Source of the DNA: a bacterium
GTDB lineage: Bacteria; SAR324; JACQKK01
DNA length: 64,000 nt
NCBI GenBank assembly: GCA_965240465.1
Contig: OZ251219.1
Coordinates: 576,001 to 640,000, forward strand
Direction of reading: 5' to 3'
Below are positions 26,544 to 32,500 of this stretch, piece by piece (the first letter of the stretch is position 1; each line of letters begins with the position of its first letter). The position numbers were made by a program.

Positions 26544-29500
26544 CTATTTCCATCCAATGTGCATTGGTTAAGCCCTTTAGGCTATCGGCATCAGTGGTGG
26601 TAATAAAGATCTGATTAGGAACCTGATTTAAATATTCGCATAATCGCTGCTTGGTAGTGCCATCCAATTCGGAGAAAAAATCGTCTAGGATCAAAACCGC
26701 GTCATCTTGGAGGAGTTTATTGAGAGCTAATTTCAGGGTTAGCAGGGCTAGACGATATTCGCCCTGAGATAACATACTTTCTGGTTCGCTTTCAATAGTA
26801 CCATTCATCCTACAATGCCGCCACATTTGGATGTTATCACGGTGCGGGCCCACCAGCACATGGCCTATCCTATGCTCTTGTTCGGTCATCTGTGCCATAC
26901 GCTCTCGCCAGCTAGGTTCATCGCCGTCCATATTGGGCAAATAGCGAAGCTCCAAGTTCGCAGCCGAGCTGGTAATTTTCTCAGGGGTGGATTCTGACAA
27001 AGCTAAAACAGGAGCAATAGCTGCATATAGCTGATTTAAGATCGGATTTAGTTGCTCAACCAACAAATGACGCTTGATCACTAGTTTTCTTCCATGCTTG
27101 ATCAGCAGGGTATCCCAAACCTCCAAACCCTGCGATTGATGTTCCTTTAGCAACTGATTTTTTTGACGGCGAGCTTGAGAAAAATCTGCCAAATGACGTC
27201 CATAGCCCGCATCGGTGAAGGACAAGCATCCATCCAGCAGAGCCCGCCGCTCACCAGGGTGATAACGATGCTGATACAACTGCTCAGGATTAAACAACAC
27301 CGCAAAACTACGCCTTACATGAGCCGACATCTTTCTCACCACATTTTCATTCCACCAAGCCTTACGCCCAGCAGCTGAAATCTCTAATCGCACTGCATCG
27401 GTACCCAATTTGTTTTCCAAAACCCCTTCCACAGAAGCCCTTAAGGCTCCCTTACGCACTAGCTGCTTCCAATAATGAGAACGAAAACTGCGTAACTGTA
27501 GCAACACATGTACTGCTTCCATCAGATTGGTCTTTCCCTGACCGTTGTTTCCTACAAATACGTTCAGTCCCGGAGCCAGCTGGAGGTGTTGCTGACGATA
27601 ATTGCGAAAATCCCGCAAACTTAGTTCCCGCACTACCATTCCAGCCGTAATGGCATCACCACCGAAATAAAATTTTCCAGATTTTCACTCTTTATTAAGC
27701 AGGGGCTCAAAGGCCCCTTAAATTCCATTTTCACTTGCTCTCCCGGCAACACCTTAAAAAGATCTTTTAGATAACGAGTATTAAAACCGATCTCAAATGG
27801 TTCGCCTTCAAATTCGGCTTCCATTTCATCTTGGGCGTAAAAAGTTTCTGATTCTTCACTTTCTACCTTCAAGAGTCCCTTACTAAAATTCAGTTTGGCG
27901 GTTGAAAGCTTATCACCGCTAACGGCTTCGGTATAATTCAAAGCATTATCAAGGCTCTGAATGTTTATAACTGCTTTTTTGTCGTTGTCTTTAGGGATTA
28001 CCTTTTCAATATCTGGGAAATTTCCCTCCACTAAGAGAGATGTTATGACAGTTGATTTATAAATCACCTTAAAATAACGTTCACCAAAGGATATTTGAAC
28101 TTCTTCGTCTTCATCTTTGAGGATTTTTCTTATTTCTGCAATTGTTTGCCGCGGAATAATAACCTCTGGCTGATCCTCACCCACAATATTTTCAACTGGA
28201 ACGGTAATAATAGAAAGACGATGTCCATCGGTAGCTACCCATTTAGATTTATCATCGCCTATCAAACGAAAACAAACTCCTCGTAAATTTTTCCTTGGTT
28301 CATCTTCCCTCACCGCAAATAAGGTTAAATCTATGCAACGCCGCAGCTCACTGGAACTAATGCTAAAACTAGCCGATGTTTCTATCTTATCAAAGGTCGG
28401 ATACAAACTCGTATCCATTGAAGACGCTCTTACCCGAGCCTTCTTGCTAGAAAATATCACGTTCTTTTTATTATCTAATTCAATGCCAATTTCATCACCT
28501 GTAAAATAACCGCAGGCCCTAAAAACCTTATTAGCATTTACACATATCTCCCCAGCACTTTTTACCAAAGCACCAGTAGTAGTGATTATTGACATTTCAT
28601 CATTAACTGCCGTTATTACTAGTTCTTTCATATCTTTTGAAGAACTATTTTTATCGGTAGCTTGATTTTCACTAGAATTGTTTTTTTGTGTACTTCCAGT
28701 TTTCAATAAAAAATTAGAAAACACACTCCTACTATGACTGTTAACCATGTCGGTAACTGGAACAACGACACCAAGAGAATCTAATAATGTTTTTTTTGAG
28801 ATAGTTAATTTCATCTTTTATTTCTTATATTAGAGAGAAAGCAAATGAGTAATAAATCATCTAATGCTATGATATGAAAGGAATAATGTCTTATAAATCA
28901 TTATTCCTAAGTGTTTCCTAAGTGTTTCCTTTTTGTTGTCATTATTTATAAATTTTTTCTTGTTTTATAATGAGACAAGACAATGGAAATGGTTAATCCA
29001 CCCTATTTTATACCAGAAGAGAGACTTGTTTTTGTTGTTTTTTGGTGGAAAAAGGCTTTGCCTGCATGTTTTGCAAGCTGTTATTTAATTCACGGAGAAT
29101 TTTTTTAAGTTTGGGTTTTTGGATTATATCCTCTTGAAGTCGTTGGTGGTTTTTCAACATCGAGGAAGCTGTTCTTCCTCCTAGTAGGCGACCGATTTCT
29201 TGATAGGAAAGATTTTGTTGTTTAAGAAGATAAATACTCATGCTACGAGCTAAGGCAACCTGTTTAGTTTTTTGTCTACTACTGATGATTTGGGGAGTAA
29301 GCGAAAAGAAATTACTTATCTGTTTGAGTATTTGGGCGGGAGATTTGAGAGACGGCTCAGGATTATTTAACCATGGATCTAGTAGCTGTTGCGATTGAGC
29401 TAAGGAAAGCGGTTTAGGTTGATGATAAGCCGCCAACAAGGTAATGGCACCTTGGAGACTGCGGGGAGAATTCAACATTTTTGACAGCCAGCAGAGAGTA

Positions 29501-32500
29501 GATGTATCCAGAGTTAGTAGGTGCTGATGAGCCCAATGTTTAAGCAGAGTTAGGGCATCTTTGGGTTCGGGAGGCTGTAGCTGACAAAATACTCCGGTGG
29601 TTAATCGGGATCTGAGCGAAGGAATTAAATGGGTCAGCTGAGAGGGGTGTTGATAGCAACTGAAGACAATTTGGGCTTGTTGGTGACCGAGGTTATCTAA
29701 TAAGTGTTGCAAGGTTTCTTGGGAACGAGGGCTAACCAATAGGTCTTCTAATCCGTCTAGGAGCAGGACTTCGGTCATTTGGAGTTGTGATTGCAGGGCC
29801 AATCCTTGGCGTTCATAGATGGAACGTAGTACTGTTTGTTTCCAATCTTCTCCGCTGATTAAGATGGTATGAAGACCTTTTTTTCTTAATCCATAGGCGA
29901 TTGCACGCAGCAAGCGGGTTTTTCCTCCTCCAGAAGAGCCCATAAGTAATAAGGGATTAGTTTTTTCACCCGGTTTTTCAATGATTTGCTGGCTCAATTG
30001 AACTGCTTTGGCGATGCCTGGGTAGATGATAACCTCTGAGAGAGCATCTTTAGGTTCAGTGGAATAAGAAGGGACGGTTGTTTTACGGGTCTTACCATTG
30101 ATGAGTTGCGGTGAGTTAATTTCTTCAGTGGGGATAGCGGAGGTTGGTTTTTTTAGTTCTAGGCGAAGATGAAAGCGGTGGGTTTTTTTAGAACAAGGGG
30201 TCTTAAAATGAGTTTGCAAGGCCAAGGCGAGGAGAGATAGGTACTTAGAAGTGATACGTTGCTGAAAAAAGTGATTGGGAACTCCCGAGAAAACCACTTC
30301 GGTAGCAGAGAGGGTTTCTAGTTTAAGAGGTTTAATCCAAGCGGAATCATCTTCGTCTAGTTGTTCCAGCAAGGATTGTTTGCAGTGCAGCCAGCAGATT
30401 TGATCCATCAAGTTTTCCTGTTAAGTTATTAGCACTTTATGGGAGTGGGTATTTGCTATCCGATGACCTTTGGTACCTTGAAAAGGCCATCTTCTAAGTA
30501 GGGGAGTTCGGGTGGAGATTTTTGCGGGTGAGGTTGGTCGTTGCGCAGGTGAGCGGGTTTGGGGGTGGTTTTAGGTAGAGTGGTGTTCAGGGAAGCAGTT
30601 TTGATTTGTTCAACAGAATGAAGTATTTCTTGGAATTGCACTAGGAAGAGAGATTTTTCTTCCTCAGTTAATTCAAGGGCAGCTAAGCCAGCAATTCGCT
30701 CTATTAGTTCCCGATTGATTTCAGGCTGAGACATGATTGATGTTTATTTAGGTTTTAGGATGATTTAGAAGGGGATGTCATCATCCACATAGGGATCTTG
30801 GTTATCAGGGGAGGGGGTATTATCTGAGGTTTGTTTGGGAGGGGGTGCGGATCTAGGAGGAGGAGCAGAGTCTTGAGGAGCAGATTCTGAACGAGGAGTA
30901 AGAAATTGAATGTTATTAACAATTATTTCAGTACGAAAACGGCGGATGTTTTCATTATCGGTCCAGTCACGGGTTTCTATTTTTCCTTCTAGGTATATTT
31001 TGCTGCCCTTATGGAGATAGTTCTGTGCCAATTCCGCCAGATGACGCCAAGCGACACAACGATGCCATTCGGTGCGTTCCTGTTTTTGACCTTGACGGTC
31101 TTTCCACTGTTCACTGGTCGCTAAGGTGAAATTAGCTACGGCATCGCCACCTTTGGTATGACGAATTTCGGGGTCTTTGCCTAAATTCCCGATCAACATT
31201 ACTTTGTTCAGTGTCATAGTACCTCTTTCATAAATGGGAAATTTCTATTTATCAGCTATCTTTCTCGCCTGCCAAACACCACGCCCGCCTCTCACTTCTC
31301 CCTTCACTCCCCATCTGCCCCCTATCCTTCACTTCTCTCCCGCTCCCCATCTCTCACTTCTCCAACCACCAGCTTGCCTACCTATCCTACCACTTCTCCT
31401 ACACCACCTCTCCAACCATCCGCTCCCTACCTCTCTCCATCCCTCTTGCCAGCCTCTCCTACCACTTCTCCAACCATCCGCTCCCTACCTCTCTCCATCC
31501 CTCTTGCCAGCCTCTCCCACCCTATCTCCAACCATCCGCTCCCTACCTCTCTCCATCCCTCTTGCCAGCCTCTCCTACCACTTCTCCAACCATCCGCTCC
31601 CTACCTCTCTCCATCCCTCTTGCCAGCCTCTCCCACCCCATCTCCAACCATCCGCTCCCTATTCCTCTCCATCCCTCTTGCCAGCCTCTCCCACCCTATC
31701 TCCAACCATCCGCTCCCTACCTCTCTCCATCCCTCTTGCCAGCCTCTCCTACCACTTCTCCAACCACCTGCTCCCTATCCCTCTCTCCTCACCCCTCCTA
31801 CCGACCCAGCTGCTGTAGGGCTTGCTTCAAACGAGCATCAAATCCCTTGAGATGAGAAGGTAAGGAACAAACCACACTGCGTACATTCTCATGGGAAAAA
31901 CCAAGGTTTGTCAAGGCAGAAATGAGGGAATTTTGGTGCCGATCAGGGAAGTCATTAGGAGAAGATAAACGCCCGCTGAGTTCCAGACACAAGAGTTGGG
32001 CGGTTTTTTTACCTACTCCGGGAGTGCGTGCTAAGAGGGAGATATCGTTGTGATGGACTGCGGTTCGGATTCCTGAGGCTCCGAGGACGGAGAGTAATTG
32101 CAATCCTAATTTGGGGCCTACGCCCCTAACCTTGAGGAGACACTCAAAGAGTAATTTATCTTCCAAAGAAACAAAGCCCACTAAGGAGAGTTGTTCTTCA
32201 CGCACAATGGTGGTGATAAATAAGACGATTTCTTTACCTGTGAGAGCCCTTTCCCAGACATCGGGAGGGGTTAGGACCTGATAACCGATTCCATTTGATT
32301 CCACGATCATCATTTCAGACCATTGTTTTACTACTTGACCTTTTAGATATCCGATCATGGTGGTTTGTGGGGTTATGATTTGGGGTCTGAGATATGGGGA
32401 AAGTTTATTTAGTGAGGATTTGTTGAGTTTTCTGGTTAAGAAAGGTGTTGGTGAACATGGTTGCATGGGTGATAGCGATAGCTAAGGCGTCGGCGGCGTC

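Follow-up and report, generated by a model that had tools for sequence, protein, structure and literature searches.

A SAR324 DnaA with a rewritten DNA-recognition helix beside a candidate ARGAA box array in the dnaA-dnaN spacer

The assignment of residues in the recognition helix of DnaA to positions of the DnaA box comes from few structures. In Bacillus subtilis DnaA, Arg202 and Glu228 are the pair that captures the guanine of the DnaA-trios. To our knowledge, most proposals of a lineage-specific box have come with no corresponding change in the protein. In the Epsilonproteobacteria, with the box core TTCAC, the lineage-specific box is ascribed to altered residues 435 and 438-439, and Helicobacter pylori DnaA, which keeps the Asp-His dyad, does not bind TTATAGACA (both from excerpts of PMC5043019). 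The Dehalococcoides box TTATCGAAA is described as an Ori-Finder proposal in the excerpted text of PMC2275245, and an excerpt of PMC10225481 reports a strongly altered DnaA target, a 12-mer box, for Thermotoga maritima.

The DnaA/oriC pair of the SAR324 bacterium described here is a new variant within a known DnaA fold and a known dnaA-dnaN origin layout. It shares with the basal unwinding system of B. subtilis (8BTG) the fold, the domains, the dnaA-dnaN origin, and tandem boxes one turn apart, and the B. subtilis-like layout of boxes plus trios is clear in many of its relatives. In contrast to that system, boxes across the order have A/G in place of C at position 6, and this genus has no canonical base-reading residue, a putative box core ARGAA, Gln and Thr in place of Arg202 and Glu228, and trios that are not evident. 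Epsilonproteobacterial DnaA, unlike that of this genus, has kept the dyad and C6/C8, and TTATAGACA is a box type of the SAR324 family studied here. The Dehalococcoides box shares the changes G6 and A8 with the boxes of the His434-lost relatives G017, G002, and G014, a likeness in the box alone to a bioinformatic proposal from another phylum. The T. maritima 12-mer differs in sequence and length, and the excerpt of PMC10225481 holds no graded series of relatives.

The features of the window, which is the whole stretch of 64,000 nucleotides that was analyzed and begins at contig position 576,001, are collected in Table 1. The dnaA reading frame gives 466 residues from an ATG and 467 from a TTG at 30411. 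The Pfam models DnaA_N, Bac_DnaA, and Bac_DnaA_C (domains I, III, and IV) all exceed their cut-offs. The AlphaFold2 model (mean pLDDT 89) has the DnaA structures 8BTG and 1L8Q as top fold matches, with a structural identity to solved DnaAs of 22-24%. We take recF and gyrB to be such from their translations and the features of their families.

Table 1. Positions of the features discussed, counted along the window
Feature	Position	Strand	Remarks
gyrB (presumed)	24132-26540		beyond recF
recF (presumed)	26509-27639		beyond dnaN
dnaN, beta clamp	27633..28814	-	adjoins spacer
dnaA-dnaN spacer, inferred oriC	28815..29007	.	193 bp, 25% GC; masked skew minimum, GC, conservation
Inverted candidate site AGGAA	28879..28883	+	ARGAA at the equivalent site of the sister
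Three in-phase candidate DnaA boxes, core ARGAA	28903..28933	-	period 11 bp; cores 28926-28930, 28915-28919, 28904-28908
Inverted candidate site TGGAA	28984..28988	+	in a 9-bp block shared unchanged with the sister
dnaA, four-domain replication initiator	29008..30408	-	sole copy in genome
Start of recognition helix, G411-N421, GGRTASSMLKN	29149..29181	-	alignment to B. subtilis DnaA
Walker B, D219-G220	29752..29757	-	E. coli D236 is Gly
C-rich 58-bp tandem repeat	31402..31788	+	not part of origin; 212 C vs 19 G

The first-pass annotation had reported GGRTASS where bacteria normally have GGRDHTT, and this holds: the start of the helix aligns without gaps to GGRDHTTVIHA of B. subtilis DnaA, with the changes D433T, H434A, T435S, T436S, and H439K in E. 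coli numbering. None of the six base-reading residues named in excerpts of PMC2533591 and PMC7561715 is kept (R399, P423, D433, H434, T435, and H439 have become K, Q, T, A, S, and K), and the sister DnaA retains only R399. As 22 of 26 residues of the helix-turn-helix are identical to the sister (10 of 13 in the basic loop), compared with 52% of the whole protein, the recognition helix is conserved and not decaying. Only 27-40% of four-fold sites are identical between the two genomes. Judged from these comparisons, the rewritten helix is under selection. The spread of both substitutions had been understated. Asp433 is lost in 20 of 20 genomes of other orders and replaced in 47 of 50 orthologues of the order, but not in every one as stated earlier from 22 sequences, since G020, G032, and G034 keep it. 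The loss of His434 is real, whereas the count of four in 22 is superseded by six in 50 (G000, G005, G002, and G014, with G017 and G018 added). With a tree support of 54 for grouping g15 with the G000/G005/G002 clade, these losses may represent only two events. None of 157 candidates in a metagenome scan was a further member of the genus, and a protein search for such members gave the sister type only.

Perfect TTATCCACA boxes are, as the first-pass annotation said, unclustered and distant; the genome has 22 (18.1 expected by chance), the nearest at contig position 637287. The search for boxes with mismatches, which it had left open, found no cluster with one or two mismatches near dnaA, and the spacer has a single site with up to two, at 28994 with two. 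The best mismatch-tolerant cluster of the genome lies near contig 760 kb. TTWTNCACA is absent from the spacer, the nearest copy being 3.8 kb off, and occurs only three times in 53 dnaN-upstream regions of the order. The absence of canonical boxes is an order-wide trait.

The GC-skew minimum at 607845, previously taken as the mark of the origin, is set by the C-rich repeat and lies about 3 kb from the spacer. Without masking, the minimum (-15772) falls at contig position 607846, the end of this repeat, and the runner-up at 604772 (window 28772) is one count short of it (-15771). With the repeat masked, the minimum moves to 604772, 42 bp inside dnaN; in the sister genome, it lies 90 bp inside dnaN. 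The skew near dnaN in G002 and G034 gave no clear placement of the minimum. The skew at third codon positions, taken over a crudely called set of ORFs, had a broad trough at 600-870 kb and was not used for locating the origin. The spacer is among the lowest 0.26% of 193-bp windows in GC, and its conservation in the sister is shown by a local score of 70, compared with at most 42 in 1000 shuffles. We infer that this intergenic, AT-rich spacer at the GC-skew switch is oriC.

Upstream of dnaN, the relatives carry oriented boxes at 11-bp spacing, often followed by DnaA-trios. The 12 spacers of the family contain YMRACA 50 times forward and twice in reverse (12.3 expected), with ten box pairs at 11 bp against 0.05 expected. 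Across the order, TMRACA occurs 224 times forward and 52 times in reverse (40.6 expected), with p<=0.01 in 32 of 53 regions and no enrichment in seven T436A genomes. At box position 6, these 53 regions have A 130, G 94, T 8, and C 2 times, whereas 61 control spacers have C 100, A 26, T 4, and G 2 times. The share of YCGAA is 0.33-0.71 in four His434-lost relatives and 0-0.25 in ten His-keeping ones. The core is TCGAA in G017, whose triple begins at the dnaA stop and occurs nowhere else in its genome, CCGAA in G002, and YCGAA in G014, and the box pattern of G014 differs from that of its His-keeping congener G015. The residue-to-box code is not strict: G018 has lost His434 yet has mixed boxes; A6 boxes are also present in G020, G032, and G034, where Asp433 is kept; the controls L163 and L176 keep Asp433 yet have only A/G6-type sites; and the controls with His at 433 (10 of 80) mostly retain C6 sites where they have a spacer. 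A Dehalococcoides-like, His-lost DnaA was found at one of 80 loci in a second metagenome scan (L222), with no TCGAA beside its dnaA. A box-box-trio pattern tried on five genomes matched the dnaN region in two and was too rigid.

The spacer array of this genome is its only match to an in-phase ARGAA triple, and that of the sister is one of two. Between these two genomes, which are the evidence base of the array, the cores are identical at 14 of 15 positions and the linkers at 6 of 12. The register of ARGAA within the 9-mer is one chosen out of three. A first guess, AGRAA, missed the array of the sister and was replaced by ARGAA. As the p-values for ARGAA are post hoc, a motif-agnostic test was added, in which none of 2000 shuffled spacer pairs had a shared triple. 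WRGAA was not significantly enriched over the whole spacer (p 0.08 and 0.11). Together with the A/G6 boxes of the order, the array supports the earlier suggestion of a different origin sequence. The best match to DnaA-trios is 6 of 9 here and 5 of 9 in the sister, compared with 8-9 of 9 in most others of the family; several His-keeping relatives also have 5-6, and weak trios occur in family members that keep Arg202 and Glu228 as well.

With a probability of about 65%, we read this protein as a working DnaA whose DNA-reading surface and origin have changed together, and the genus looks like the last step of a lineage-wide joint change of protein and target. In a first step, the phylum mostly lost Asp433 and has boxes whose position 6 is A or G (TTATCAACA, TTTTCGACA, and TATAGACA types), an observed pattern that DnaA presumably binds; these boxes stand in 11-bp tandem, in many genomes just ahead of DnaA-trios and dnaN. 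The lineages without His434 would then have moved position 8 from C to A, a correlation in few genomes, and the box of this genus would finally have shifted to the core ARGAA, most likely at positions 4-8 (NWWARGAAH). Domain IV would bind the three sites, which follow each other head to tail at intervals of one helical turn, DnaA would oligomerize via its retained arginine finger, and AT-rich DNA would be opened toward dnaN for the loading of DnaB, which the genome encodes. As the equivalents of Arg202 and Glu228 are replaced, single-strand capture probably follows a different or looser rule. A wider proposal, which we put forward tentatively and with some doubt, is that the phylum is a natural stepwise rewrite of the DnaA code, in which position 6 becomes free through the loss of Asp433, C8 gives way to A through that of His434, and positions 4-5 change through further alterations of the helix. 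Its end point would be this genus, whose essential initiator would recognize an ARGAA array with none of the canonical base contacts left, would no longer capture the guanine of DnaA-trios, and might control ATP turnover in another way.

Within one phylum, proteins and boxes can be compared in matched pairs, with G014 and G015 as a contrast inside a single genus, and these pairs make the recognition code directly testable by single-residue swaps. Because of the variant boxes, the origins of this group would escape standard origin finders; a candidate replacement motif is now supplied, and the group tests the universality of the box-plus-trio unwinding system.

It is unlikely that the spacer is an origin served by a loosely specific DnaA and that the array consists of CsrA sites on the dnaA-dnaN transcript, is bound by a regulator acting on the dnaN promoter, or represents a tandem repeat of old date. 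CsrA prefers GGA, which is present in five of the six array units, and it is encoded in all four genomes tested; a promoter-like site directly follows the array (28897-28869), at chance level (one found, 1.6 expected); and the genome is rich in repeats, with 1000 tandem-repeat rows, 15 of them of period 11. However, the exact 11-bp phase and the position match the box arrays of the relatives, the cores are kept better than the linkers, inverted copies are conserved, and the GAA core is common to other His-lost lineages. Moreover, a helix without specificity would not show the strongest conservation in the protein.

We consider it quite improbable that DnaA is becoming dispensable in this reduced 1.6-Mb genome, with a DnaA-free replication start and spacer and skew as relics. 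Some bacteria do initiate independently of DnaA, as an excerpt of PMC8287927 reports, and the DnaA scores of this genome are the lowest in the order. The protein retains Walker A Lys, the arginine finger, and sensor-2 Arg, but the trio-pocket, Walker B, and sensor-1 residues are replaced; D236 and D269 of E. coli, present in 80 of 80 control bacteria, are Gly220 and Tyr253. These changes in the ATPase motifs are, however, also seen in large-genome relatives, a search of the genome aimed at Rep3, as the one alternative initiator family covered, found none, the dnaA frame is intact in both genomes despite near-saturated synonymous sites, and DnaA is as similar to the sister as DnaN is (52% each).

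It is very improbable that the gene is an Hda-like paralogue, came from a foreign source, or arose by misassembly. It scores below the cut-off of the NCBIfam DnaA equivalog TIGR00362 (206.9 versus 343.9 bits, in line with the missing call noted earlier), and the relative G022 has a second, canonical DnaA, but the protein has all four domains and is the only PF00308 match of the genome, its gene adjoins dnaN in the order dnaA-dnaN-recF-gyrB shared with the sister, and contigs from two runs of one sample do not differ in any letter across 28600-31418. Hda lacks domains I and IV, both of which are present here, and the Hda model scores 72 against a cut-off of 195 bits. The nearest relatives of this DnaA are the DnaAs of its family.

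The DnaA of this small-genome SAR324 bacterium is the sole PF00308 match in the whole genome, a single contig of 1,599,138 bases with overlapping ends, and the gene order dnaA-dnaN-recF-gyrB is shared with the sister genome G005. An AlphaFold2 model built from 70 sequences had a mean pLDDT of 89, with solved DnaAs as best structural matches, and dnaA and the dnaA-dnaN spacer agreed letter for letter between contigs of two runs from one sample. The protein keeps the Walker A lysine, the arginine finger, and sensor 2, but not the second Walker B aspartate or the sensor-1 residue. 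For E. coli DnaA, two papers name six base-reading residues, R399, P423, D433, H434, T435, and H439 (PMC2533591, PMC7561715), whose equivalents here are K, Q, T, A, S, and K. Also Arg202 and Glu228, described in B. subtilis DnaA as bonding the trio guanine (PMC10721633), are replaced in this genome, G005, and the relative G002, and are kept in the remaining 47 of 50 order sequences.

Features near the inferred origin (window positions)
Feature	Position	Strand	Remarks
dnaA	29008-30408	(-)	four-domain DnaA
dnaA-dnaN spacer	28815-29007		inferred oriC
Three ARGAA cores	28904-28930		11 bp apart; -116, -105, -94 from dnaN start
dnaN	27633-28814
ParA-type ATPase	37955-38737		Pfam AAA_31; near origin, cluster 35701-38737
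Unknown partner of the ATPase	36937-37836		near origin
Tandem repeats (examples)	7744-8520, 31402-31788

In a comparison of this genome with G005, identity is 27-40% at the four-fold degenerate sites of four genes and 52% for each of the proteins DnaA and DnaN, but the DnaA helix-turn-helix (22 of 26 residues) and basic loop (10 of 13) are largely the same. Judged from these alignments, the DnaA pattern points to selection, not decay. DnaN itself carries about 20 extra low-complexity residues in its first domain compared to the sister (393 vs 373 aa).

A clear DnaA match was found in 53 of the 64 order genomes searched; G025 and the fragments of G036 and G056 were left out, and a second, canonical copy in G022 was set aside, giving 50 sequences. 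According to the first-pass annotation, the aspartate is replaced throughout SAR324. The replacement of Asp433 is indeed widespread (47 of 50 order sequences, and Asn in 20/20 of the other-order genomes of the class, 20 of 24 being covered), but three order genomes keep it. His434 is replaced in 6 of the 50 and kept in all 20 other-order genomes. The 80 named control bacteria split at residue 433 into 70 with Asp and 10 with His, and their His434 is invariant. The 24 metagenomic full-length DnaAs closest after the sister type have all replaced Asp and, in six cases, His. The second DnaA of G022 (L002, contig C69; helix GGRDHTT) is probably a binning contaminant. A further DnaA lineage (P0003, P0004, L222; helix RQP), with both residues replaced, looks Chloroflexota-like; no box was found beside the dnaA of L222.

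In 12 dnaA-dnaN spacers from other genera of the family, YMRACA motifs number 50 forward and 2 reverse, where 12.3 would be expected and 300 shuffles gave at most 25; ten pairs have an 11-bp spacing, for which the expectation is 0.05. In the order's other family, dnaN is not next after dnaA in any member fetched; boxes and DnaA-trios remain upstream of dnaN, as tandem TTATCAACA, TTGTCAACA, or TTTTCGACA with CTA repeats after them, which is the layout of the basal unwinding system (PMC8287927). The DnaAs of this family have the sensor-2 arginine shifted or lost in many cases (kept in 6/34), and they often carry Lys as the arginine finger. Upstream of dnaN in 53 of the 56 dnaN-bearing genomes (G014, G035, and G051 had too little DNA there), we counted 224 forward and 52 reverse TMRACA, with 40.6 expected, and three canonical boxes in all. 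Box position 6 was A130, G94, T8, and C2 (A23, G21, T2, and C1 with one genome per genus), compared to C100, A26, T4, and G2 in the control bacteria (61 of 80, with adjacent dnaN). Twenty spacers from other orders, counted without shuffles, lean the same way (TMRACA 32, TMCACA 6, canonical 5). As kin are not independent, all these box counts are descriptive and do not amount to formal tests. Several cases speak against a strict rule: Asp433 is kept alongside A6-type boxes in three order genomes and two controls, His433 controls mostly retain C6 sites, and seven T436A genomes are without TMRACA enrichment or arrays (G037, G038, G039, G042, G043, G044, and G048; L083, L100, L087, L074, L090, L085, and L080). 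Less strict NRAACA/NRGACA arrays with 11-bp spacing appear to be present in G043, G044, and G048 and might represent a further stage of the code.

The relatives that lost His434 tend to differ at box position 8. G017 (Pro) carries TCGAA five times; three of these copies are in 11-bp phase, a triple that occurs nowhere else in that genome. In G002 (Ala), two CCGAA lie at an 11-bp distance (9/5000 shuffles); G014 (Tyr) has two YCGAA within the 74 bp available, and its His-keeping congener G015 has zero; G018 has mixed sites. YCGAA makes up a share of 0.33-0.71 in these four genomes and of 0-0.25 in ten His-keeping family members. An RpoB+DnaN tree (short RpoB for G017, G014, and G018; outgroups DnaN only) joined this genome, G005, and G002 with support 100 and G014 with G015 with support 100, and tied G017/G018 weakly to the former clade (54), which would suggest two or three losses. 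The same two changes occur in TTATCGAAA, the Dehalococcoides box proposed by Ori-Finder's authors (PMC2275245).

The spacer of this genus contains zero TMRACA. It holds the ARGAA array, whose cores in G005 lie at -118, -107, and -96 from the dnaN start; in both genomes they are near the mid-spacer box pairs of relatives. The in-phase triple is the sole match in this genome and one of two in G005, and the cores are identical at 14/15 positions vs 6/12 for the linkers. A motif-agnostic shared triple arose in 0/2000 shuffled pairs and in 4/3000 with G005 alone shuffled. Two inverted candidate sites are also common to both spacers. If GAA is taken as positions 6-8, ARGAA would align with the boxes of the His-lost relatives, though it could also be read in another register. 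The array is known from two genomes only, this genome is repeat-rich with 15 period-11 arrays and encodes CsrA, and WRGAA showed no overall enrichment over the whole spacer.

The skew minimum previously reported beside dnaA turned out to be the end of a C-rich repeat (contig 607846), ahead of contig 604772 by one count only. With the repeat masked, the minimum is at window 28772, adjoining the 193-bp spacer with 25% GC. The G005 minimum lies 90 bp inside dnaN (400 kb joined over contig ends, circle assumed, no terminal overlap seen), and in G034, another genome of the order, the densest box cluster within 200 kb sits just upstream of dnaN.

DnaA is intact and conserved, the spacer is origin-like, the relatives' boxes are variant, and the array is conserved. 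Domain IV of DnaA may bind the ARGAA array, the oligomer would open AT-rich DNA in the direction of dnaN, and DnaB, which was found in this genome, would then be loaded. Co-variation suggests the assignment of helix residues to box bases. By domains and context the protein is a DnaA, and the system would work like DnaA/oriC, but it lacks the canonical specificity features. Lineage-specific DnaA boxes as such are already known. We found no literature on the DnaA or origin of the SAR324 group; an origin of this kind could be listed in DoriC tables or supplements, and the search excluded most subscription journals.

The replichores look unequal, with the skew minimum near 605 kb and the maximum near 1.54-1.56 Mb. 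The genome's densest near-canonical box cluster (contig ~760.1-760.5 kb, 4 one-mismatch boxes/400 bp) is far from both extremes. Tandem repeats are very abundant given the genome size of 1.6 Mb (Tandem Repeats Finder gave 1000 rows, with 6.6% covered, and 49 rows in the window), and long arrays give spurious ORFs and distorted GC skew. The small cluster with the ParA-type ATPase also holds two small holin-like genes together with a peptidase-like one.
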